Shown: positions 16,407 to 29,708, counted from the first letter of the stretch. The stretch is DNA of 64,000 bases from an uncultured delta proteobacterium (GCA_963826785.1 CAWGYD010000006.1:192001-256000), one strand, 5' to 3'. The notes: generated by a model not told the origin, from the sequence alone. Program-made: numbers and translations.

Positions 16407-17267
16407 TTAGGGGACATCGATGGAGATCATGATGCTCAGGGTGGTAATGGCCAGTATGGAGAAGCGGTAGAGTTTTTTGGCCCAGGGGCGGGGATCGGTG
16501 GGATTGAAGCCCCTCCATGCCATATACAGCCAGCACAGGCCCAGTGGCAACGCCACGGCAAGGGTGATGCAGCCGGTGCGGCCCGCAGCGGTCAGCAGCG
16601 GCACGGTCAGCGTAAAGGCCAGGATATAGCCGATGATGTGCCTTCTGGTTGCAATCGTTCCCCGCGCAACCGGCCAAACCGGTATGCCGGCGGCGGCATA
16701 GTCATCGAGCCGGTAAATGGAAATGGCATAGCAGTGGGGCATCTGCCAGAGGCTGAACATTAAAAACAGGATCAGTCCCCCCATATCCAAACGGCCGGTG
16801 ACCGCGCAGTAACCGGCCAGGGGCGGGACGGCCCCCGCCAGACTGCCGGCCAGGGCACCGTACACCGAACGGCGCTTCAACAGCAGGCTGTATAAGACCA
16901 CATAGACCCCGAATCCGGCGCCCACGAGGGCCACGGCCAGGAGGTTGGTTTCCGCCCAGAGCAGGGCGATCCCCGCCGCCCCCAGCAGCGACGCAAAGAG
17001 GGCAGCATTCTTGACCGGCATGCCCTCCCGGGCCAGGACCCGGTTTTTCGTCCGGACCATTTTCCGGTCCATGCCCCTGTCAATGCAGTTGTTGTAGACA
17101 CAGCCGGAGGCGACCACCAGGGATATGCCGGTGATCGCCGGCACGAGCAGAGCCGGGTTCACCTGGCCCCCGGAGGCCAGGAAAAAGCCGGCCGCCGCCG
17201 AAACCAGATTGCCCAGGACGATCATCGGCTTGGTGACGCGCAGATAGTTTTTGGCCGTATCCCTCAT
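16407..17267 (-). CDS. cyoE: Protoheme IX farnesyltransferase (heme o synthase)
   Basis: NNCIDRGMDRKMVRTKNRVL, LWQMPH; last gene of the cyo operon. Confidence 0.92.
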   Translation of the reverse strand: MRDTAKNYLRVTKPMIVLGNLVSAAAGFFLASGGQVNPALLVPAITGISLVVASGCVYNNCIDRGMDRKMVRTKNRVLAREGMPVKNAALFASLLGAAGIALLWAETNLLAVALVGAGFGVYVVLYSLLLKRRSVYGALAGSLAGAVPPLAGYCAVTGRLDMGGLILFLMFSLWQMPHCYAISIYRLDDYAAAGIPVWPVARGTIATRRHIIGYILAFTLTVPLLTAAGRTGCITLAVALPLGLCWLYMAWRGFNPTDPRPWAKKLYRFSILAITTLSIMISIDVP

Positions 17268-17596
17268 TACCATTTCAGCCGGTAATTCATGTTGTACATG
17301 ATCCAGAGGGTTCCCCCGACAAACAGGACCATGATCAGCAGGGTAAACAGCAGGGCCGCCACGTTCCAGCGCATGGAAGACGAGGTGTCCAGGTGCAGGA
17401 AAAAATGGAGGTGCACCAGGATCTGTAAAACGGCCGCGGAGAACATGCCGGCCAGGGTGGCCCGAAGGGAGACCGCGCCGCTCATGACCAGCACAAACGC
17501 CATGACCGTCAGCAAAAGGGACAGGACAAACGCAATAAGATAGGATTTGAGGCTTCCCCTGCTTGCCCCGATCCGCTCAGCAGATGCCGGATTCAT
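17267..17596 (-). CDS. cyoD: Cytochrome bo3 ubiquinol oxidase subunit IV
   Basis: SYLIAFVLSLLLT...QILVHLHFFLHL...GTLWIMYNMN. Confidence 0.92.
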   Translation of the reverse strand: MNPASAERIGASRGSLKSYLIAFVLSLLLTVMAFVLVMSGAVSLRATLAGMFSAAVLQILVHLHFFLHLDTSSSMRWNVAALLFTLLIMVLFVGGTLWIMYNMNYRLKW

Positions 17597-18214
17597 TTAT
17601 AAGACCCCCATCAGGTACACAAAGGTGAATATGCCGATCCAGATAACGTCCAGAAAGTGCCAGAACATGCTCAGGCGCATCAGCCGCGACTGGACGGGGG
17701 CGGTCAGCCCCTTGACGGCAACCTGCCCGATCATGACCGCCATCCACAGCAGCCCGAAGCTCACATGGGTGCCGTGGGTGCCCACCAGGGTGAAAAAGGC
17801 CGATAGAAAGCCGCTGCGCTGGGGTCCATGACCGGCGGCCACCATGCCGTAGAACTCATGGATCTCCATGCCGATAAACCCCAGTCCCAGCAGAAAGGTG
17901 ATGCCAAGCCCCGCCAGAAGCAGCCGCCTTTTCTCATTGTGCATGGCCACCATGGTCAGGCCGTAGCTGGTGCTGCTGAACAGCAGGAACATGGTTTCAC
18001 CGAAGGTGTAGCGAAGATCGAACAGGTCCTTGCCGGTGGGGCCGCCTGCATAATTGCGGCCCACTACGGCATAGGTGGCAAAGAGCGCCGCAAACAGCAC
18101 CAGGTCGCTCATGAGGTAAATCCAGAACCCGAAGGCCTGGATATCCATGGTGTCATGGTGTAGCGCTTCCCGGGAATAAGTGGAGGCGATGGTCGAAGCG
18201 TCGGTTGCAATCAT
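17597..18214 (-). CDS. cyoC: Cytochrome bo3 ubiquinol oxidase subunit III
   Basis: FGFWIYLMSD, FLSAFFTLVGTHGTHV, FWHFLDVIW. Confidence 0.95.
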   Translation of the reverse strand: MIATDASTIASTYSREALHHDTMDIQAFGFWIYLMSDLVLFAALFATYAVVGRNYAGGPTGKDLFDLRYTFGETMFLLFSSTSYGLTMVAMHNEKRRLLLAGLGITFLLGLGFIGMEIHEFYGMVAAGHGPQRSGFLSAFFTLVGTHGTHVSFGLLWMAVMIGQVAVKGLTAPVQSRLMRLSMFWHFLDVIWIGIFTFVYLMGVL

Positions 18215-18217
18215 GAT

Positions 18218-20266
18218 TTACCCCTGCGGTGAAGGTTCGGACCGGGCCGGTCCGCCGGAAACGAAATTGCCGGCTGCCGCTGCCATCTTGCGGTATCGCT
18301 CTTTCTCGATCCGCTCGACTTCAGCGGCGGGTATGGTATATTCTGTGTCGTCATTCGATCCGCGGGCAATCACCATGATGAGGATGCCCAGGGCGCATAG
18401 AATGGCCAGCCACCAGATGTACCAGATCATCCCAAACCCGAACAAAAAGGCCAGTATCCCGATGAAGAAGCCGTTGGGTGCGTTTTTGGGCATAGCGATA
18501 TCGTAGTACCGCCCCGGGTGAGTATGGGCGGTCCCCTTTTCCTTCATGTCCCTGAAGGCATAAATATCGTGGACGACCGGTATCCTGGCAAAATTATAGA
18601 CCGCGGGCGGCGAACTGGTCTTCCACTCCAGGGTGTGCCCGTCCCAGGGGTCTCCGGTATCGTCGCGAAGGGCCTTGCGGTCCCTGATGCTCAGGGCGAG
18701 CTGAAGCAATTGGAAGATGATGCCCAGCAGGATGACGGCCACGCCTGCGGCGGCCACCAGCAGGTAGGGCTTCCAGGCCAGTACCGAGTAATGCTGCATG
18801 CGGCGGGCCATGCCCATGAAGCCCAGCACGTAAAGGGGAATAAAGGCCAGATAAAAGCCGATGAGCCAGCACCAGAAGGCGAGCTTGCCCCAGCTCTCCT
18901 TCAGATGGAAACCAAGGGCCTTGGGAAACCAGTAATAGTATCCCGCGAAGAACCCGAACAGGGCCCCGGGGATCAATACGTTGTGAAAGTGGGCGATGAG
19001 AAACAGGCTGTTGTGGAGCACCCAGTCGGCCGGGGGCATGGACAGCAGCACCCCTGAAGCGCCGCCGACGGCGAAGGTCACGATAAAGCCCAGGGTCCAG
19101 TACATGGGCACGGTGAACCGGATGCGGCCCCGGTACATGGTGAACAGCCAGTTGAAGATCTTCACCCCGGTGGGGATGGCGATCATCATGGTGGCCACGC
19201 TGAAGAAGATGTTCACGTCGGCGCTGGCCCCCATGGTGAAGAAATGATGCAGCCACACGGAAAATGACAGGATCATGATCACGCCGGTGGCGTAGACCAG
19301 GGAGCGGTAGCCGAACAGCCGCTTGCCGGAGAAGGTGGACACCACCTCCGAGAAGACGCCGAAGGCCGGCAGGATCAGGATGTAAACCTCGGGATGCCCC
19401 CAGATCCAGAAGAGATTGATATACATCCGCATGTCGCCGCCCATGGTATTGGTGAAAAAATGCATCCCCAGGTAGCGGTCGAGGGTGGTCAGGGCCATGG
19501 CGACCGTCAGCACCGGAAAGGCCCCGATCATGAGCACATTGGTGAAAAAGGTGGTCCAGACAAACAGCGGCATGCGCATGAACTTCATGCCGGGGGCCCG
19601 CATTTTGACGATGGTGACCAGAAAATTAATGCCGGTCATGAGCGAGGCGACGCCGGCAATTTGGAACGACCATACCCAATAGTCCACTCCGGTGCCGGGG
19701 CTGTAAGCCTTTTCCGTCAAGGGGGCGTAACCGGACCAGCCGGCCTTGGAAAACTCGCCGATACCCAGCGACACCATCACCAGCAGGGCACCGGCAGTGG
19801 TCAGCCAGAGGCTCACCGAATTCATGAAGGGGTAGGCCACATCGCGTGCGCCAATCTGCTGCGGCATGGCGATATTCATCAGCCCTACCAGAAACGGCAT
19901 GGCCATGAAGATAATCATGATGGAGCCGTGCGCGCTGAAGATCTGGTCGAAGTGTTCGGGCGGCAGGTAGCCGTGGGCGGCCCCCAGGATGCCGGGGGAG
20001 GTGACCGCGCCCAGGGCCTGCTGGGAACGCATGAGGATGGCGTCTGAAAACCCGCGCAGCAGCATGATCAGCGCCAGGATGATGTACATGATGCCGATCT
20101 TCTTGTGGTCAAGGCTGGTAAACCATTCCCGGTAGAGGTATCCCCATTTCCGGTAATACGTGATCAGGGCCAGAATGATAAACGCCAGCACCAGGGCCCC
20201 GCTCACTGCGGATATCACGATCGGTTTGTCATAGGGTACGGCCGAGAGGCTTAATTTTCCAAACAC
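18218..20266 (-). CDS. cyoB: Cytochrome bo3 ubiquinol oxidase subunit I
   Basis: [50 protein letters not shown]. Confidence 0.97.
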
Positions 20267-20267
20267 G

Positions 20268-21170
20268 TTAATCTTTCTCCAATACGCCGGCAGTCGGGTT
20301 CGTTAAAACAAAATCCCTGTTTTCGGGGCCTGGATGATGGTATTTGCGCATGACGTGTTCAAACAGGCCGGGCTGGACCGACGAGAAGGTCACCGGGTGG
20401 GACGTACCGGGTTCGGCGAGCTTCTCGTATCTGGGCAAATCGAGTGTTTCCGGTGACTGCCGGGCCTGTTGCACCCAGGCCTCAAATTCCTCACGGGATG
20501 CGGCGATCGCCTTGAAATGCATGTCGGCATAGCCGCTGCCGCTGAATTGCTGATTGTGGCCGCGGAAGGTGCCCTCTTCGTCGGCCAATAGATGAAGCCG
20601 GCTCTGCCCCCCCGGCATGGCGTAAATCTGGCTGCCCAACTGGGGGATAAAGAAGGATGTCAATACCGTGCCGGCGGTGAGCTTGAAGCTCAAAGGGACA
20701 TGGGCGGGGAAAACCAGCTGATTGACGGCCGCGATATTCTGCTCCGGATAGATAAAGAGCCATTTCCAGTCCAGGGACACCACCTCGATGGTCAGGGGCT
20801 TTTCGCCGTTATGGATCGGCTTGTAGGGATCCAGATGATGAGTCCGGGTCCAGGACAGGTAGGCAAGGGCTGCCACGATGGCGACAGGGACCAGCCACAT
20901 GGCCAGGTCGATCTTGACGGAATAGTCCCATTTGGGCATGTAGGTGGCGCGGGGGTTTGAGGCCTTGTACTTTCGGGCAAACCAGTAGGCCATGACAAAA
21001 ACGGGAACAACCACGATCATCATGAGCGCGATGGCGACCACGATGACGAACAGTTCCCCGCTGCCGATGGGTCCCTTGGGATTGAACAGAATGATATCGC
21101 TGCAGCCGGAGAGCGGCCCCGTAACTAAAAGTGTATATCCGAGGAGAACAGCATCCTTTTTTCTTTTCAT
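20268..21170 (-). CDS. cyoA: Cytochrome bo3 ubiquinol oxidase subunit II (lipoprotein)
   Basis: LSGC lipobox, [30 protein letters not shown]; lacks the CuA cysteines, so quinol type. Confidence 0.95.
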
Positions 21171-21524
21171 TGAGCCGCTCCAATCCGCCGCATGCCTTTG
21201 CCGGCGCAAAATTGCAGCACCGGATGGTGCATCTTTTCTCGCACCCCAGATGCTATCCGCTCAAGCTGATAATTTTCTACGAGGGTTATTTTCTGAAAAT
21301 ATAGGATTCATAGTTCCATCCTGCAAATCTGATGTCAGGGGAATCAGGGGATGGAAATGGGGGAATGGCAATGGGGGCACCAGCCTTATTTCTGCATTTG
21401 GTGCAAAATTCGGGCTGATTTCAGTCGATTTTTCTCATCGCCGGCAGGGGACGGGTACGGTGTCCCCGAAATTACCGGCATCAGGCGGAATCAGGAAGAA
21501 GAGGATTGCAAGAATCCGATCAAA

Positions 21525-22376
21525 TTAAGAGGGGGTGCTGTGCTTGTAGCCCCTGCGGCCTTTGTAGTTTTTTACGCAGTTGCCGAGGCCGAGCATCAGG
21601 GCGAGGCGGGCCTGAAGGCAACTCGGCAAAAGGCCGCGGGCGATGATGCCAAGCCGGATCTGCCATGGAATGACGACCATGTAGCGCTGCTTTTTGAGCC
21701 CCTTTTCCACGATGCCTTTTGCGATAATGTCGTGGTCTTTGACCGGAGGGGCCATCAGCCGTCCCAGAAGATTGAGTGAAAAGCCTTCGAACATGCCGGT
21801 GAGGATGTTTCCCGGGTGCACCGAGGTGAATTTCACCCCGTTTTTGCCGGCGGCCATGACTTCCAGGCGCAGCACATCGGTAAGCCCCCACACCGCCCAC
21901 TTGGAGGTGGTGTAGGCGGCCAAGCCGGGTGCGCTGGTCACGGCCACGCCGGAAGAGACATTGACGATGTGTCCTGAGTTTCGCGCCATCATGTCGGGCA
22001 GAAACTCATGAATGCTGTAAAACAGGGCATTCACGTTGACATCCATCTGCTTGACCGCATTTTCGACGGGCTGCTCCCAGAACATGCCGTTTCGCACGTA
22101 GCCGGCATTGTTGATCAGGATATCCACCCGGCCCATGTCCTTTGTCGCTTGGATGGCCAGTTCGCGGACCCGGTCCTTGTCGGAGACATCGCACACCCAG
22201 GCAAAGACCCGGCCGCCCATTTCTTTCAGCTCGGCTGCCGCCGCCGCCAGATCCTTTTCGGCAAGGTCCCAGATGGTCACCTCGCAACCTTCTTTCACCA
22301 AACGCCTGCAAACGGCCAACCCGATCCCCATGGCCCCACCCGTCACAATCGCCTTTTTCCCCTTCAAATTCATCAT
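21525..22376 (-). CDS. Short-chain dehydrogenase/reductase
   Basis: TGGAMGIG, NNAG, YTTSK. Confidence 0.9.
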   Translation of the reverse strand: MMNLKGKKAIVTGGAMGIGLAVCRRLVKEGCEVTIWDLAEKDLAAAAAELKEMGGRVFAWVCDVSDKDRVRELAIQATKDMGRVDILINNAGYVRNGMFWEQPVENAVKQMDVNVNALFYSIHEFLPDMMARNSGHIVNVSSGVAVTSAPGLAAYTTSKWAVWGLTDVLRLEVMAAGKNGVKFTSVHPGNILTGMFEGFSLNLLGRLMAPPVKDHDIIAKGIVEKGLKKQRYMVVIPWQIRLGIIARGLLPSCLQARLALMLGLGNCVKNYKGRRGYKHSTPS

Positions 22377-22377
22377 A

Positions 22378-23609
22378 GGGACGCCCTTTACATTTTTATA
22401 TTTTTCAAAATCTCCTGCAGCACCAAACCCTCTTTTTGAGCCAATCGAATTCCCCTTTTAACCGCAACGCTTACAGTGGGCACCGAGATTTTCAAACTGC
22501 CTGCCACATCCGTCATGGACATACCCAGCCCGCGCACCGCCCAATGACAGACAAGGGCACGCGCCTTCGTGATGACGCGCACTTTGGACGGCCCGACAAT
22601 CTCTTCCGGATCGATCCCGAGAAAACGGGATACGGCTGAAATAACATGTTCCAGTGTCACGCCCCTGGCGACGGGCTCGTATCGCGTTTGCATGCGCTCA
22701 CGGGCATTGGCCAAGACAGATTCGACAAAGTCCCCGTCCCCGAGAATGCGCTCATCGCTTTTTTGGAAAGCTCCGGTCCTGCGCAGTGATTGAACTGATG
22801 TCCATCCGCCGGCGCTTCGAATCAGTCCGCCGCCAACAAGCTCCGGCTGTCGCCCCTTTTCGATACCCTTTATAAGATATTCCCGATAGCTTTGCCGCGC
22901 CGCATTTTTCTTCCTGCCGAAAAATGCCAGCACGTCCTCGATTGATTGCCAGTCGTTGCGCCGTTTTGCCATCAGGTAACTATGCCCTGCAAATTGATAA
23001 TGGTCCAATTCGCCAATATCATAAACCAATCCGGCCCTGAGCGGGTTAAGATGGATGTAGCGAACCAGTTCTTTCAAATATACGTCTTCCTGGCACAGAA
23101 TCGATTTGTACCTGTTCTGAAAAACGTGCCCACATCGCTCGTGGCGCCGGTTATAACTTACTGCATAGCCGGTCAGAAGTCGGCGCATGACAGTGGAAAT
23201 CGGTTCATTTCCGGTTTTCAGCAGCAGGTGGAAGTGGTTGGGGATCAATGCCCACGAGAAGCATTTCGTTTGGGTTTCAATAATGATCTGGCCGAGACGC
23301 TTCAAAAAATTTTCACAATCCTGATCATCACGGAATATCCGGCCTTGCTCGATCCCCCTGGCAATGATGTGATGCACCGCCCCCGGCGCGTCTATGCGTG
23401 CTTGTCTTGGCATACCAAATCCATAGCACATGATCAGATTAATATAAAGTATAAAGGGCGTCCCACAATTGAGGGACGCCCTTTATACTTTATATTTAGC
23501 TGTTGCGGTTGAGTCCGGTTGTTTCTCGATCCAGGGGTTGGTGTTTGTGCAATACTTCATCACACTTTACCAGAGCGATATCTGAAATGTAAAATGTAAA
23601 GGGCGTCCC
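22378..23609. mobile_element. Inverted-repeat-bounded element carrying a RAYT-like Y1 transposase plus a tandem mini-unit
   Basis: Four TAAAGGGCGTCCC copies (22378-22390 reverse, 23452-23464 forward, 23473-23485 reverse, 23597-23609 forward); perfect 22-bp outer IR at 22375-22396 and 23591-23612. Confidence 0.75.
22388..23413 (-). CDS. HUH Y1 transposase (IS200/RAYT superfamily) with C-terminal DnaA-C-like HTH
   Basis: MPRQARID..GAVHHIIARG, LIPNHFHLL (HUH), GHVFQNRYKS, YIHLNPLRAG; C-terminal KARALVCHWAVRGLGMSMTDVA. Confidence 0.9.
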   Translation of the reverse strand: MPRQARIDAPGAVHHIIARGIEQGRIFRDDQDCENFLKRLGQIIIETQTKCFSWALIPNHFHLLLKTGNEPISTVMRRLLTGYAVSYNRRHERCGHVFQNRYKSILCQEDVYLKELVRYIHLNPLRAGLVYDIGELDHYQFAGHSYLMAKRRNDWQSIEDVLAFFGRKKNAARQSYREYLIKGIEKGRQPELVGGGLIRSAGGWTSVQSLRRTGAFQKSDERILGDGDFVESVLANARERMQTRYEPVARGVTLEHVISAVSRFLGIDPEEIVGPSKVRVITKARALVCHWAVRGLGMSMTDVAGSLKISVPTVSVAVKRGIRLAQKEGLVLQEILKNIKM

Positions 23610-23612
23610 TAT

Positions 23613-24362
23613 CTATTGGATTTGAAATTGTTCGATGAAGATGACTTCGCAGGCGCCGTTGCCGGTATCGTTTCGGGACAGGGAGCTTTTCCACTTCCAG
23701 TTGTCTTCTCCCGTCACCTGCACCAGGTATCCGTCAAAATCGACGATGTCGCCGGTTCGGGCCGCCTTTATCTGTTTTAATACGGACGAATCCGCCGGGA
23801 TCAGGTGCATGTTGGCGCTGTGGGTTTCAATTTCATTTTTGGGGATGGGAAACTGATCGGTCGACCAGAAGTAAAACCGGTTGGATTGATGAATTTTGAG
23901 TTTCTGAAGGACGGATTCATCCGACATCCTGCCCCAGCCCAGCGCCAGATCAATGGGCGCCAGGTCCGACTCACGGCCGAATGAATATTTCTTCTTGCTC
24001 AGCACCCGGGCATTGACGTGAAAATCGGCCAGCGGGGTCACCTGGTATGCTTTGAACGCAAAAGGCGCGGTGGAGGGGGCGGTCTGTTCGGGCGGATCCT
24101 GCGCCATTACACCCGGGCCATGGGAAACCGGCCGGCTGCTCCACCAGTCGAATGCCCCGTAAAGGATGATAATGAGGGAAAGCAGGGCGACCGCGAAGGA
24201 TTTTACCGGAAGACCCGAAGACGTGTCCTTCGGGGATTGCGTTTCAGGGACGGAGCCCGGCGGCGGCCGCATCGGATGTTCATTGTATTTGCGGATGATA
24301 ATTCCGCACGAGATGCATTCCAGGGCTTGGGGCTGCTCAAAACCGCATTTGGGGCACTTCAT
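23613..24362 (-). CDS. Hypothetical membrane-anchored protein with N-terminal zinc ribbon
   Basis: CPKCG...CISCG, one TM helix, conserved-looking DLALGWG, SANMHLIP, SRNDTGNGACE. Confidence 0.75.
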   Translation of the reverse strand: MKCPKCGFEQPQALECISCGIIIRKYNEHPMRPPPGSVPETQSPKDTSSGLPVKSFAVALLSLIIILYGAFDWWSSRPVSHGPGVMAQDPPEQTAPSTAPFAFKAYQVTPLADFHVNARVLSKKKYSFGRESDLAPIDLALGWGRMSDESVLQKLKIHQSNRFYFWSTDQFPIPKNEIETHSANMHLIPADSSVLKQIKAARTGDIVDFDGYLVQVTGEDNWKWKSSLSRNDTGNGACEVIFIEQFQIQ

Positions 24363-24424: not shown

Positions 24425-25282
24425 TTAGAAGTCGGCCCAGTCAGTGACGGGCCGGAGCGGCACCGGCGGGTAGATCTGGCCATGGCTGGGGGGCATGGAA
24501 TTATAAACCCAATCGATATCAATTGTTCCCAAATTCAACAACCGTATACGATTGAATCCGTTGAATTTGCCCCGGGTCAAAACGTCCTCCATTTTCATGG
24601 TCAGGCCGAATACCGAAACGGTTTGTCCGGCGGGGATGGCTTTCAGTTCGGATCCGTATGCATAGGGGGTGAAGGCCAGCCGGCGGCTGTCCGCGGCCTG
24701 GCACTGGAGCATGGGAACGATCTCCGGAAACCCGTCCGCTTTCACCCAGGCGATGAATTTGAGCGAATCGATGGCGTTGAACAGGTTTTCGGAAAACGGG
24801 GTCAGAATGCGGCGGTCCTTCCCGGTGGCCGCTGCACTCCTGGCAATCCGGGTCGTCAGCGAGGATGCGATGATCGACGCCAGCGGAAGCCCGTCCGGGC
24901 CGCGCAGATCCACCAGGTCGAGGTAATGGACGGTGTTGATCCCGAAATAGGAATTGTACCGGAACATGGGCAGGTTGTTGTAGGCCTCATATTCCGGCCC
25001 CTCGGTTTTGAGATGCGTCCAGGACGCATGCCCCCGCCACATTTTCCGGTTCATGGTCAGCACCAGAAAGGCAACTCTGGGGTTCTTTTGAATAAAGGAC
25101 TTGCTCTGCCCCTTGCAGAATTCGCCCAGGGTGATTCCGCTTTTGCCGGCGGCCCGCAGGGAGGTGATCAGGGTGATGTGGGGCAGGCCCGCGGGGTTGA
25201 TCGATGCCACCAGCCCGATCTTTTCATTGGGCGAAAACGCTTCGATGGTCTGTTCATCCATTTCATTAAGATCGTAGCTCAC
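24425..25282 (-). CDS. Tandem pyridoxamine-5'-phosphate-oxidase-like (FMN split-barrel) protein
   Basis: Two similar halves (GLVASINPAGLPHIT; KFIAWVKADGFPEIV); GAGGAG RBS ahead of GTG at 25282; overlaps the activase stop. Confidence 0.7.
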   Translation of the reverse strand: MSYDLNEMDEQTIEAFSPNEKIGLVASINPAGLPHITLITSLRAAGKSGITLGEFCKGQSKSFIQKNPRVAFLVLTMNRKMWRGHASWTHLKTEGPEYEAYNNLPMFRYNSYFGINTVHYLDLVDLRGPDGLPLASIIASSLTTRIARSAAATGKDRRILTPFSENLFNAIDSLKFIAWVKADGFPEIVPMLQCQAADSRRLAFTPYAYGSELKAIPAGQTVSVFGLTMKMEDVLTRGKFNGFNRIRLLNLGTIDIDWVYNSMPPSHGQIYPPVPLRPVTDWADF

Positions 25283-26426
25283 CTTGGGGCTCCTCCTCTG
25301 TGTTTTTCTTTTCCAGCCGGGCCGACCCCGACCAGGATACGATATCCGGATCGACGCCGGACGCCTTTGCGGTCCGGGCAAAATCGTTCATTTCCGCTTC
25401 GCTGAGCAGCGGGGTATCATGAAATTCCCATTTTCTGTCCAGGCGCAGGTACTTGTCTCTGCACAAATTGTTGAACGCGCACAGTTCCCAGCGGCTCACC
25501 ACGTCTTTTATGTTTTCGGCGATGAACCGGCCGATGGCCGCGATGTTGTCATGGTGTGCCGTGGCCCCCGGGATGACGGGCGTGCGGATCCACAGTTCCC
25601 GGGGATACAGGTGCGAACGGATGTAGTGGGCCGTATGCAGCAGATTTTCATGTATGTTTTGATTGCTGTGTCCGGTAAAGCGTCGATGGGCTTCCTCATC
25701 CATGATCTTGAGATCGAACAGCACCAGTGCCGCATGGGGAAGCAGGTGATCCAGCGCCTCGCGGCTGCACTGGCCGCAGGTGTCCATGGCGGTATGGAGC
25801 CCCGCTTCCCGCAGGGCCTGTAAAAACGCCCCCGCAAACCGGTGCTGCAGGGTCGGCTCCCCGCCGGATATGGTGATGCCGCCTTCGGATGCCTCAAAAT
25901 ACGCCCGGTCCTTGACCACCTCGGCCACCAGTTCGTCCACACGCCATTTTTTGCCCAGAAGTTCCAGGGCCGTGCCGGGGCATTCGGCCGCACACGCGCC
26001 GCACCCCTCGCAACGGGTGCGGTCGATGGCCATCCCCTGCTCCGAAAGTGTCAAGGCGCCGTTTTCGCATGTCTCAAGGCAGGTGCGACAGCCGATGCAC
26101 CGGTTGCCGATCCAGCAAAGCTGGGGTGAAATGGAGATGCTTTCCGGGTTGTGGCACCAGGCGCACGAAAGCGTGCATCCTTTGAAAAACACCGTGGTCC
26201 GGATCCCCGGCCCATCCTCGGTGGACATGCGCACGATCTCCAGGATGGTGCCGGTCAGATTTGAATTTTTTTCCTTTTTTCCGTTTGTCTGTAAAGACGG
26301 TTTATCCTTGCTCCCCCCTTTCGCAAAGGGGGGCAGGGGGGGATTTTTTGCAGGATCTGCTCCAAATCCCCCTAAATCCCCCTTTTCAAAGGGGGACTTT
26401 TCAGTTGCAGGCGCTTGTGGATTCAT
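25266..26426 (-). CDS. Glycyl-radical enzyme activating enzyme (radical SAM with ferredoxin-like insertion)
   Basis: DGPGIRTTVFFKGCTLSCAWCHNPE; CIGCRTCLETC and CEGCGACAAEC; GGITISGGEP. Confidence 0.95.
   Translation of the reverse strand: MNPQAPATEKSPFEKGDLGGFGADPAKNPPLPPFAKGGSKDKPSLQTNGKKEKNSNLTGTILEIVRMSTEDGPGIRTTVFFKGCTLSCAWCHNPESISISPQLCWIGNRCIGCRTCLETCENGALTLSEQGMAIDRTRCEGCGACAAECPGTALELLGKKWRVDELVAEVVKDRAYFEASEGGITISGGEPTLQHRFAGAFLQALREAGLHTAMDTCGQCSREALDHLLPHAALVLFDLKIMDEEAHRRFTGHSNQNIHENLLHTAHYIRSHLYPRELWIRTPVIPGATAHHDNIAAIGRFIAENIKDVVSRWELCAFNNLCRDKYLRLDRKWEFHDTPLLSEAEMNDFARTAKASGVDPDIVSWSGSARLEKKNTEEEPQGELRS
26311..26399. repeat. REP-like palindromic doublet inside the activase 5' coding region
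   Basis: tcccccctttcgcaaaggggggcagggggggatt ... aatccccctaaatcccccttttcaaagggggac. Confidence 0.75.
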
Positions 26427-26459
26427 CCGCTTTTCCTGGCAATGCATTTTGAAGTTCTC

Positions 26460-28973
26460 TCAATACCGGCTGTGGCTCAGCCTGGCGATCACCTCGTTCT
26501 GGAGTTCGCGGCCCACGGCGGTGAAATAGGCATTGTAGCCGGTGATCCGCACCAGCAGGTGCCGGTAGTTCTGGGGGTGCGCCTGGGCGTCTTTGAGCAT
26601 CTCCGGGTCAAGCATGTTGACCTGGAGGCAGGTGCCGCCGTTTCGGTCGTATCCCTTCAGGAAGGCCTTGAATTTTTCCCGGTGGGCCGGGTCCGCGATG
26701 ATGGACGGGTTGAAGGTCATGGTATGACTGGCGCCGTTGGGGAGGCAGTTGAGATACCCGCCCCAGTCCCCCTGCCCGTCTTTGGCCCGGCCGCCCAGGG
26801 CCTTGCCCACGGAGTTGGCATTGGCGGTGGGGCCGTTGATGTCCGCGCCATTGGACGGGCAGATGGCGTTGGACAGGAACTCGCCCTTTCTGCGGCCGTC
26901 GGCGCTGGCGGCCATGACAAACCCGTCGCCCGCCCAGTAATTCCAGCTCAGCATCCCGGGGCGAAACTGCCGGCCCGTGCTTTTCGTCCTGTGCTTCCAG
27001 GCCTCGGCCGTCCAGAGGTCCATGACTTTTTGCGCCATTTCGTCTGCCGCATCATCGTCCCGGCCGTACTTGGGCGCCCGGTTTCTGGCCAGGGCGCGCA
27101 GCTTGTCGTGGCCTTCCCAGTTGTCGCGCAGGGCGGCGATGAGTTCGGACATGGTGCATTTTTTTTCGTCAAACACCAGGTACTTGACCGCCAGCAGAGA
27201 ATCGACCGTGGTGGCAAAGGTCACCGCCTCCAGGGTGACAAATGAAATCTCGGCGCCGCCCCGGGTGACGTCGATCCCTTTTTCCGCGCACCCCTTGACC
27301 AGGCAGGAGAGATAGGGGGTGGGCAGATACGCCGCCCGAACCGATTCGGAGCGCTCATAGAGGTCCACGCATTTTTTGACGATATACTGCGTCTGGCGGG
27401 CATAGGCTTCCCAGAACCGGGCCCAGTCCGCAAAACGGGCGGCATCTCCGGTGTAGGGGCCGTCCTGTCGGATCTTTTCGACTTTGCCGGTGAGAATGTC
27501 TTTGAAGGGGATGATGTCCGTGCCGCCGGTAAGGGCGAGTTCAACGGCCTTGAGCAGGTTCAGGTTGCAGTCCACCGTGCCGGAGCGGTCGTTTCCCGCC
27601 ATGGTATTCTCCAGGCATCCCACCGGCGCGTAGTCGTGAACGTTGTCCCGGTTGATCAGATGGCCAATCCCTGCTTCTTTGGCCTCCCGGAGCATCCCGG
27701 CCATGGAGCGCTCATCGAAATTGATCAGAAAGGGCGCCCCCTGGCTGGATGAAATCATGTCCACCATTTTTTCCAGGAGGGGCTCGGGCGAATTTTGGTG
27801 CAGGCGGACATTGGGCTTGGGCTCCAGGATGGGGCTCATCTCGTCGATGACTTCAAGGATGACATAGGTGAGGTCGTTGGTGGTGTCCAAGCCGTCTTTT
27901 CCGATGCCGGAGAGGGTGAGGAGCTGCCCGAACCCGGCGGTGATCCCCTGGTTGCCGTTTCGGATCATGGCGTCATAAGCGGTGTTGGCATGCACCCAGA
28001 AGCATTTGAGGATCTCCTTGCCGAACTCCCGGTCCATGCCGGCATCGATGGAGGCCTTCCAGAAGGGGAGCAGGTACTGGTCGATCCGGCCGAAGGAAAC
28101 CCCCGGGCCGGGATAATTTTCGTCGCTCATGACCAGCATGTGGGTCAGCCAAAGGGACTGGACGGCCTCCCAGAAGGTTTTTGGCGGCTCCCAGGGCACC
28201 CGGTCCAGATTTTTGACCATCTGCATCAGTTCGGCCTTGCGCTCCGGGCCGGTTTCCCTTACCGCCAGTCCCCGGCAGACCGTGGCGTATTTGGCCGCAA
28301 GTTCCCTGGGCAGGGTTGCCGATGTCATCATGGCCTTCAGCTGGGCACCCTTTTCGCCTTTCTGCTCTTCCGGGGAAAGGGCCTGGAAGAGATGCTCCAG
28401 TTCCTCGTGAACGCCTTTCCAGCCCATGGCCAGCACCTTCGGGTAATCCGGGATCAAGTGCCCGGAAGTGGCGCCGGCATTGCCGTATCCGTGGTCGTGA
28501 AACCATTTCACCGCGGCCCGGGCGCCCTTTTTGCCCGTGGTCAGCGCATCGAATGCCGCCTGCTCTTCCCGGTCCAGGCACATGGAAGCGATAATGTTGA
28601 ACCGGCCGCCGGCAATGAGGTCTCCGGGCAGCATCTCTGCGGGCAGGCAATTGACCATGACTTCCTTGATGAACACGGCCCGGCGCTCCACGATGGATTT
28701 TTCCCAGAAGCCGGCGGGAAGATCCACCATCCGGGCGGACTGCCTGAAGGAACTGCGCAGGGTCTGCATCAGCATGTAGGTTTCCGGGACGATGTAGTAG
28801 GTCATCTCGTTGAACTGGACATCCCAGGGGGTGCCCGTGGTCCAGGCGGTAAACTCGTTGTTCCAGGCCCGGTCGGTTCCCTTGAAGTAATAATCCCGCA
28901 GTTTCGTGATGCGATCGGAAAGACCTGCGGGTTCCTTGATGCCGGGCTGCAGCCGGGCGGCGGATGTGGCCAT
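26460..28973 (-). CDS. Glycyl radical enzyme (PFL superfamily), substrate unknown
   Basis: Cys loop APVGCLEN (single Cys), Gly loop LLVRITGYNAYF, SFGRIDQYL. Confidence 0.93.
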   Translation of the reverse strand: MATSAARLQPGIKEPAGLSDRITKLRDYYFKGTDRAWNNEFTAWTTGTPWDVQFNEMTYYIVPETYMLMQTLRSSFRQSARMVDLPAGFWEKSIVERRAVFIKEVMVNCLPAEMLPGDLIAGGRFNIIASMCLDREEQAAFDALTTGKKGARAAVKWFHDHGYGNAGATSGHLIPDYPKVLAMGWKGVHEELEHLFQALSPEEQKGEKGAQLKAMMTSATLPRELAAKYATVCRGLAVRETGPERKAELMQMVKNLDRVPWEPPKTFWEAVQSLWLTHMLVMSDENYPGPGVSFGRIDQYLLPFWKASIDAGMDREFGKEILKCFWVHANTAYDAMIRNGNQGITAGFGQLLTLSGIGKDGLDTTNDLTYVILEVIDEMSPILEPKPNVRLHQNSPEPLLEKMVDMISSSQGAPFLINFDERSMAGMLREAKEAGIGHLINRDNVHDYAPVGCLENTMAGNDRSGTVDCNLNLLKAVELALTGGTDIIPFKDILTGKVEKIRQDGPYTGDAARFADWARFWEAYARQTQYIVKKCVDLYERSESVRAAYLPTPYLSCLVKGCAEKGIDVTRGGAEISFVTLEAVTFATTVDSLLAVKYLVFDEKKCTMSELIAALRDNWEGHDKLRALARNRAPKYGRDDDAADEMAQKVMDLWTAEAWKHRTKSTGRQFRPGMLSWNYWAGDGFVMAASADGRRKGEFLSNAICPSNGADINGPTANANSVGKALGGRAKDGQGDWGGYLNCLPNGASHTMTFNPSIIADPAHREKFKAFLKGYDRNGGTCLQVNMLDPEMLKDAQAHPQNYRHLLVRITGYNAYFTAVGRELQNEVIARLSHSRY

Positions 28974-28976
28974 TTT

Positions 28977-29708
28977 TCAGTCCTCCTGTCTGGATACGAT
29001 GTTGCGCAGCCGGTCTTCGCCATGCTTGAGCATGCGCCACATGACATCTGCGGCGGCGGGCTCGTCTTGATCGGCGATGGCGGAAACCAGCTCGCTGTGG
29101 AATGCAAAGACTTCCTCAACCACGGATGTATCGGTGAAAAACTGCCGGGAGAGGTTGGTGTAGACCGGCTTGAAGGAATTGATCAAAAGGGGATAAAGAA
29201 GGTTGTCGGTGGCGATGGTCACCGTAAGATGAAATTCGAAATCGAGCTGGGTCACGGCATCGATGTCTGCGGCCGAAGCCGCCTGCTCCCGGCCGGTGAT
29301 GCGGTGAAATTCCAAAATCTGTTCATCGGTGCGGTTTTTCGCGGCCAGGCGGGCGTTTTCCGTCTCCACCAGCAGCCGCATGTTGAGCATCCCCTCCAGC
29401 AGCCGGGGATCGAGCTTGCCGTCCTGGTACGCCAGAAGGGAGGTGAGCAGGGTGATCGATCCCTGCCTGCGGTAGTCGTTGATGATGGTGCCGATGCGGG
29501 GGGTCATGGAAACCAGCCCCTTGGCGGCAAGATCCACCAGTGCCTCGTGTACGACGGGGCGGCTCACCCCCAGATGCCTGGCCAACTCGCGCTCCGGCGG
29601 CAGCTTCTCCCCCACGGCAAGCGCTCCGGAGAGAATCAATTCCTCAAATCGCCTGACACATGCTTCCTTCAAGCTGTCCGATCTGACCGGCCGCAATCGG
29701 TCGAGCAT
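28977..29708 (-). CDS. GntR/FadR-family transcriptional regulator
   Basis: KLPPERELARHLGVSRPVVHEAL wHTH plus FCD domain (DFEFH). Confidence 0.93.
   Translation of the reverse strand: MLDRLRPVRSDSLKEACVRRFEELILSGALAVGEKLPPERELARHLGVSRPVVHEALVDLAAKGLVSMTPRIGTIINDYRRQGSITLLTSLLAYQDGKLDPRLLEGMLNMRLLVETENARLAAKNRTDEQILEFHRITGREQAASAADIDAVTQLDFEFHLTVTIATDNLLYPLLINSFKPVYTNLSRQFFTDTSVVEEVFAFHSELVSAIADQDEPAAADVMWRMLKHGEDRLRNIVSRQED

Follow-up and report, generated by a model that had tools for sequence, protein, structure and literature searches.

The locus is, on sequence comparison, an intact example of the already named TIRtron design, and it lies in a 64,000-nucleotide window, the whole stretch of DNA analysed, from an uncultured delta proteobacterium. 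The transposase gene is intact and encodes a predicted single-stranded-DNA-cutting Y1/HUH transposase with a DnaA-like tail. Judged by size and position against its relatives, the core element at the locus is 22378-23464. Units with this architecture turn up at unrelated sites, which makes them likely to be mobile as units. A preliminary description, made from the window alone, had proposed such mobility of an inverted-repeat-bounded unit, and the case for it is now a comparative one.

The start codon of the transposase gene is most likely the one at 23413 rather than that at 23431, giving a protein of 341 residues, because M-P-R is invariant in 29 of 29 aligned proteins. The protein matches the Pfam family Y1_Tnp over the cut-off (E 6e-8). 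The matches to Bac_DnaA_C (PF08299; E 3e-6, 27.5 bits) and to the NCBIfam family REP_Tyr_transpos (NF047646; 64.4 bits) are under the respective cut-offs of 31.5 and 80. The catalytic motifs are H60-F-H62 and Y119-I-H-L-N123-P124 (Y-x-x-x-N-P), and residues H60, H62, Y119, and N123 are invariant across the 29 aligned proteins. The C-terminal part, about residues 255-319, contains a helix-turn-helix similar to DnaA domain IV. An AlphaFold model of the protein has a pLDDT of 85. The fold search with this model ranks TnpA-REP (4ER8) first, followed by the TnpA proteins of ISDra2 and IS608, and then by DnaA domain IV (3PVP and 1J1V, with TM scores of 0.70-0.74 on the target). A search of solved structures with the single transposase sequence gave no match, and a profile search of them found DnaA chains only (E 6e-4); the Y1 domain emerged by the fold search. 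The named relatives of the protein come mostly from Desulfobacterales and other deltaproteobacterial assemblies, with some from Nitrospirae, Chlorobia, and Actinomycetes.

Table 1 Features of the TIRtron locus and its two neighbouring host genes, in window coordinates.
Feature	Position	Strand	Remarks
Short-chain dehydrogenase (SDR), host gene outside the element	21525..22376	-	adh_short, E 2e-52
Downstream (right) terminal inverted repeat	22375..22396	+	Contains the transposase stop; outer bases overlap the first SDR ATG
TIRYT gene, 341-aa Y1/HUH transposase-like protein	22388..23413	-	Pfam, NCBIfam, invariant residues, fold model
Upstream (left) repeat of the TIRtron proper, lower hairpin arm	23441..23464	-	51 nt before the transposase ATG
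Loop between tips	23465..23472	.	8 nt, nearly self-complementary, central CAATTG; no perfect palindrome
Inverted copy of the left end, upper hairpin arm	23473..23502	+	Private variant in common with the lower arm
89-bp unique interior of the "mini-element"	23497..23585	.	No similar sequence in the compared loci or the rest of the genome
Outer upstream repeat	23591..23612	-	Perfect 22-nt partner of the right end
Upstream host gene, outside the element	23613..24362	-	No Pfam or NCBIfam match

The perfect inverted repeat of 22 nt, reported in the preliminary description at 22375-22396 and 23591-23612, is present in the sequence and is not extendable by one base on either side. The transposase stop, said to lie within the first of these copies, is indeed there (TAA at 22388-22390). 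The 86 nt behind the right repeat match a right-end profile from 16 relatives (E 2e-13), and a left-end profile matches the end at 23441-23464 (E 6e-22). The outer upstream repeat has the orientation of this inner left end and lies 145 bp away from it. The elements of relatives are mostly 1.04-1.16 kb long, those of close relatives about 1,090 bp. Seven copies of the 12-mer AAAGGGCGTCCC are present in the 4.43-Mb genome, four of them at this locus; two of the remaining three are the ends of a 154-bp unit (C6:432570-432723), and one stands alone at C1:680689. The two bases outside the seven genomic tips are TA, TA, TA, AC, AC, TC, and TC. A 16-mer occurs in 15 of 58 family genomes, and a reversed control pattern in none of the 58. 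The window's genome has a second TIRtron (C6:850209-851294) with 53% protein identity, its own different repeat sequence, and a tandem tip copy at its right end. Near the start of contig C2 the genome contains a long perfect inverted repeat (C2:3043-4564) with arms of more than 500 bp, which may be an assembly artefact.

The proposed tie of this Y1 and helix-turn-helix class to inverted repeats extends to its relatives. An inverted pair alike at 17 or more of 22 positions brackets 60 of the 72 distinct full-length loci that have enough flank, loci truncated at contig ends and those with incomplete genes being excluded; the other 12 are without a pair at this threshold. The repeats are usually positioned 50-60 nt before the ATG and 12-113 nt past the end of the protein match. 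A GGACG core is nearly invariant, and the clade core is GGGGACG(T/C). The 15 positions inward of the core are variable among elements, yet both ends agree in 52-60 of the 60 elements, as compared with 19-51 of 60 in a swapped-end control. Kin among the loci are not independent, so the P values given below overstate significance. Relatives often have additional upstream ends of the same orientation (L011, L014, L053, and L219). The outer pair of the window's locus is perfect over 22 nt, and the pair formed by the inner left and right ends agrees at 17 of 22 positions, the lowest score among the 60; this speaks for the larger unit having been used last. One of the related genomes has 11 of its 12 exact repeat matches within ~115 kb (G026:C6:121900-236300), a strain-variable region in which most of the ends are decayed or deleted.

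Tandem copies of the tip, whose inner length varies from 4 to 40 nt, occur at 24 of 254 ends, and in 15 of the 24 the match extends 7-11 nt outside the core, with a mode of 9. Among tip copies with a period of at least 20 nt, 8 of 13 fall in this range, compared with 2.9 expected under slippage (P = 0.002; the 7-11-nt range was picked after inspection of the data). At 14 junctions compared with repeat-free alleles at least 85% identical, the distance outside the core at which host homology ends is 5-11 nt in ten and 14-20 nt in four; these distances were counted by hand and are upper bounds. Tip duplications that start from about 9 nt outside the core suggest a nick-and-displace chemistry. The window's own junctions, 4 nt and 2 nt from the cores, are tighter than the 9-nt rule. 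Among pairs of near-identical ends with unrelated flanks, 114 of 127 have just one to three outer bases in common, and the outer segment is therefore not carried faithfully.

Fourteen pairs of elements are at least 78% identical over at least 800 nt. Ten of them have no flank in common, two share both flanks, and two the right flank only, so that 4 of the 14 keep one or both flanks, as in vertical inheritance. Four of the ten pairs without a common flank are within single assemblies (L077/L079/L080, 96-98.5% identical, and L049/L051, 96%). The elements L077, L079, and L080 are each about 160 bp short and internally deleted, and thus likely moved in trans. The elements of G008 and G072 are 92% identical, with recA at 78%. 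Gene-less derivatives of ~218 bp, composed of 170 left and 50 right bases, occupy different sites in G026, G064, and G072. Together with the 154-bp derivative in the window's own genome, which retains a 5' remnant of the transposase (profile E 1e-9) and has outer bases other than TA, they bear out the expectation that the class gives rise to non-autonomous copies. The genes flanking the 154-bp derivative are not adjacent in the 57 family genomes searched. In G008, 774 bp, consisting of a gene-sized stretch with a 77-bp mini-unit at one edge, stand where G026 is continuous. The search for empty sites among congeners of G009, G008, G024, G072, and G016, and for the genome's own mini-element, yielded none that was clean. 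Nor was there a clean filled and empty pair: L007 and the derivatives of G064, G008, and G072, which were traced, have flanks of different origin, as is also expected from adjacent deletion beside a resident element.

Two further observations concern the surroundings of related elements. A shared stretch of a host gene adjoins a repeat end in L189 (1162-1570), L249 (2097-2505), and L183 (1891-2303), which belong to two genera and in which the sides of the element differ. At the ends of a 61-kb contig (G040:C21), the segments L187:1-4761 and L188:3674-8435 form a mirrored repeat of at least 4.76 kb that is 99.7% identical, contains a TIRtron, and ends 8 nt beyond the core of the TIRtron's right end.

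The reading that we favour, with somewhat better than even confidence, is that the TIRtron moves rarely as a repeat-bounded unit without target duplication and also copies and rearranges its own ends, by nicking, priming, and rejoining. The helix-turn-helix would bind the variable, A+T-rich, co-varying inner repeat, and the HUH domain would nick one strand about 5-11 nt, mostly 9, outside the GGACG core. With the inward-reading strand nicked, the flank would retain a 3'-OH able to prime inward strand-displacing synthesis. Rejoining would give rise to tip duplications with a fixed outer edge and to one-sided junctions, and the use of both ends would result in a moved unit. Y1 chemistry provides a 5'-phosphotyrosine and a free 3'-OH, and the scheme is the one proposed for the amplification of BIMEs by TnpA-REP (PMC3333891, cited, like the papers below, for the covered part of its text). 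A bolder version, to which we give rather less than even weight, is that the clade consists of true insertion sequences with an undescribed chemistry, in which a Y1/HUH enzyme acts on two symmetric ends without target duplication. The DnaA-like domain would then read the ends as double-stranded DNA, nicks would be placed ~9 nt outside GGACG on opposite strands, and strand displacement would move whole units, their miniature derivatives, and at times adjacent genes.

It is also conceivable, if unlikely, that the transposase is a domesticated RAYT-like resident gene that nicks its repeats and no longer copies itself, with its movement due to host recombination and gene transfer. Nicks at the repeats would then cause duplicated ends, deleted or swapped flanks, and the spread of small repeats. 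Such a gene would be consistent with the single copy in the window's genome, the retention of the site in congeners (L005/L006 and L084/L085), the one-sided flank changes in L030/L038 and L106/L107, and the one-sidedness of every traced junction. The near absence from phages (0 of 50,697 records matched at E 1e-10) and plasmids (3 of 72,556 records, all distant) points in the same direction, as does the treatment of class 2 and RAYT genes as mostly immobile in the covered text of PMC6006769 and PMC5581495. However, whole units that are 96-98.5% identical occupy different positions within one assembly, and their homology ends at both repeats or a few bases beyond them, and units that are 92-95% identical are present in genera that differ by 22% in recA. 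Both observations argue against a resident gene and for rare movement of the repeat-bounded unit.

The immediate junctions of the window's element are compact. The upstream gene stops at the same residue as its homolog in L009, and its stop codon is 4 nt from the upper repeat core. The lower core is separated by 2 nt from the first ATG of the SDR, and in an alignment with seven close SDR homologs this ATG coincides with the start of six. The operon junction TAG-AT-ATG-ATG, which the preliminary description rebuilt by removing 22378-23609 and one TA, has the sequence given there; however, it does not single out a TA duplication, because the junction left when everything up to and including the 22-bp repeats is taken out, TAG-G-ATG, is just as tight. 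On the minus strand, AAAGGG of the right repeat is the sole ribosome-site-like motif ahead of the SDR. A ribosome site is located upstream of 7 of 7 close SDR homologs with upstream DNA, whereas the rebuilt junction has none, so that a clean insertion and a loss of the SDR leader next to the repeat are equally plausible.

The pattern of the empty junction has no match in the metagenome collection. SDR relatives are present there at nine loci, are at most 84% identical, and none is accompanied by the upstream gene. In 301 genomes of the order the upstream gene has seven other homologs, none within 1.5 kb of an SDR. Adjacency of the two flanking genes in relatives, by which the insertion was to be judged, is found at none of the loci compared from other organisms (10 for the SDR and 8 for the upstream gene). 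This result carries little weight, given that all these loci are distant and outside the genus and that four SDR loci have little upstream DNA. One sequencing run, with 6% of the words present, yields short pieces and no joint across the element, and is neutral evidence. Farther out, both on the minus strand, the window contains five ORFs at 16407-21209 that we take to be an operon for a cytochrome bo3-type terminal oxidase and heme O synthase, and ORFs at 25266-29708 that presumably encode a glycyl-radical enzyme, its activating enzyme, and a GntR-type regulator. The oxidase-like ORFs sit in a genome whose relatives carry labels of sulfate-reducer kin.

The TA duplication suggested for the locus finds no support as a family trait. 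TA is present at both ends of 6 of 60 elements, compared with 3.1 for swapped ends (P about 0.05), and two of the six are near-identical copies. TA and AA are the commonest dinucleotides outside the G-run. Non-palindromic outer dinucleotides are inverted-repeat-like in ten cases and direct-repeat-like in one. No symmetric direct repeat of 3-9 nt, at offsets of 0-13, exceeds the swapped control in the 60 elements. By contrast with such direct repeats, the ends are weakly complementary out to about 9 nt, with 182 matches versus about 136 at positions -3 to -9. The third base (ATA) also matches, which a 2-nt duplication does not explain. These comparisons make a loose outer repeat that includes the TA the best reading. 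The alternative already offered in the preliminary description, that TA belongs to the inverted repeat, is thus the better family-wide reading, whereas this locus alone is compatible with either.

A cut-and-paste-like event, in which all of 22378-23609 entered a tight operon junction cleanly at a TA and duplicated it, is quite improbable. The 22-nt perfection of the outer pair, the two host genes intact up to the repeat, and the excess of TA outside the G-run at both ends speak for it; 54 of 60 relatives without TA at both ends, the lack of a direct repeat of 3-9 nt, the inverted-like outer dinucleotides, the unexplained third base, and a rebuilt junction that has neither a ribosome site nor a metagenome match speak against it, as does, weakly, the separation of the flanking genes in distant loci. 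TA-duplicating elements with terminal inverted repeats, of the IS630/Tc1 type, encode a DDE transposase and have TA at both ends of every copy, unlike the present Y1 elements.

The 24-bp hairpin noticed upstream of the gene is formed by the inner arms 23441-23464 and 23473-23496, which pair perfectly over 24 nt around the 8-nt loop. The pairing continues imperfectly to 34 nt (91%), with the arms differing at 3 of 34 positions. Folded as single-stranded DNA, the hairpin has an energy of -27.7 kcal/mol (z = -11), and none of 200 shuffles is as good. The variant common to both inner arms is absent from the other ends listed for comparison. The upper arm is likely a local fold-back duplication of the left end, because both arms have the private variant, pair beyond the repeat, and enclose a nearly palindromic loop. 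No second hairpin joining two tips of this repeat occurs among the loci compared. The upper unit of 137 bp was considered as a deleted copy of the transposase, and this was rejected since its interior matches neither the left- nor the right-end profile. The unit is also single-copy, and the tandem mini-element of the preliminary description is not supported as a transposed one. The additional 145 bp most likely consist of an older upstream end (23609) and a fold-back copy of the present one, rather than of an independently inserted mini-element. A promoter scan gave a sigma-70-like match (9/12) on the minus strand, from 23593 to 23564. It is highly improbable that an assembly error produced the hairpin or the extra 145 bp and that the perfection of the outer pair is incidental: the hairpin is unique among the compared loci, the locus is known from the assembly alone, and the same assembly has the other long perfect inverted repeat on contig C2, but the arms are not identical, the loop is no perfect palindrome, the interior of 89 bp is unique, and additional upstream ends are frequent among relatives.

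Fused tips of another kind occur in two related genomes. Palindromes of 28 bp, L154:1501-1528 (G064:C23) and L175:2421-2448 (G026:C6), consist of two tips with nothing between them. At the site of L154 in G064, G026 carries a longer remnant behind the same flank.

Among known systems, the element shares with classical REPtrons (E. coli TnpA-REP with REP and BIME) its top structural match, 4ER8. The duplication of its ends resembles the amplification proposed for BIMEs, and the tip-to-tip doublet resembles a REP doublet (PMC3333891, in part). Unlike a classical REPtron, it has no GTAG-tagged hairpin and a C-terminal helix-turn-helix, and whole units are present at unrelated sites. Abundant tagged REP hairpins mark that class; here there are seven core copies in 4.43 Mb, and the NF047646 score is under its cut-off. 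Group 1 is the most IS-like of the true RAYT groups, with 6.2% duplicates (PMC5581495, in part).

With IS200/IS605 elements (IS608 and ISDra2), the TIRtron shares the HUH/Y1 fold and the lack of target duplication. Those elements encode short proteins with Y-x-x-x-Q, instead of the Y-x-x-x-N-P of the window protein, and end in dissimilar subterminal hairpins. In the covered parts of PMC3333891 and PMC4810608, both of their cuts are on one strand at a 4-5-nt target, and terminal inverted repeats are lacking; IS605/ISC elements are likewise described as without terminal inverted repeats or target duplication (PMC4810608). The present element has inverted repeats, and its single ends fold like shuffles (z -0.1 to -0.4). 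A GGG-ACG-CCC stem at each tip, considered as an IS608-like hairpin, is no better than shuffles and is unconserved across the clade. Symmetric TIRtron ends would place equivalent cuts on opposite strands, unlike in IS200/IS605.

The long class 2 protein with Y-x-x-x-N-P, the C-terminal Bac_DnaA_C-like helix-turn-helix, and the lack of typical REPs are as in TnpA-REP subclass 2.1.2 (PMC6006769, in part). By that published description, it is the motif and the C-terminal domain on which the match to the subclass rests. The architecture was named TIRtron, with its transposase TIRYT, in 2013 by Di Nocera, De Gregorio, and Rocco (PMC3733652), and 20 of 26 TIRYTs were put in subclass 2.1 in 2018 by Quentin et al. 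(PMC6006769), so that the novelty implied in the preliminary description does not stand. One paper states that evidence for mobility of such units is lacking. A literature search, with subscription papers largely outside its scope, found no experimental study of TIRYTs.

The locus agrees with the TIRtron in having a RAYT-like tyrosine transposase gene, with a conserved HUH motif and a catalytic tyrosine, between terminal inverted repeats at a fixed distance, instead of GTAG REPs. It also agrees in repeats that sometimes overlap the 3' end of the gene, a G-run near the tip, small repeat families, and dimers (PMC3733652, in part). The clade core is GGGGACG(T/C) and the published motif GGGGWSAS: the window's AGGGACGC matches 6 of the motif's 8 positions, and in all 60 left ends of the clade a G stands where the motif has A. 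That motif is common to some, not all, TIRs, and unrelated TIRs are allowed (PMC3733652, in part). The locus by itself adds little beyond its unusual fold-back hairpin and very tight junctions. The clade adds, all of it by comparison, data on ends, target signature, and mobility, which the covered text of PMC3733652 does not give. Y1 transposons cut both ends on one strand and are without terminal inverted repeats, according to the covered parts of PMC3333891 and PMC4810608. For the symmetric TIRtron ends, the comparison yields substrates, namely an intact gene, co-varying ends, and 218-bp derivatives, together with a predicted nick position, which makes the question directly testable.
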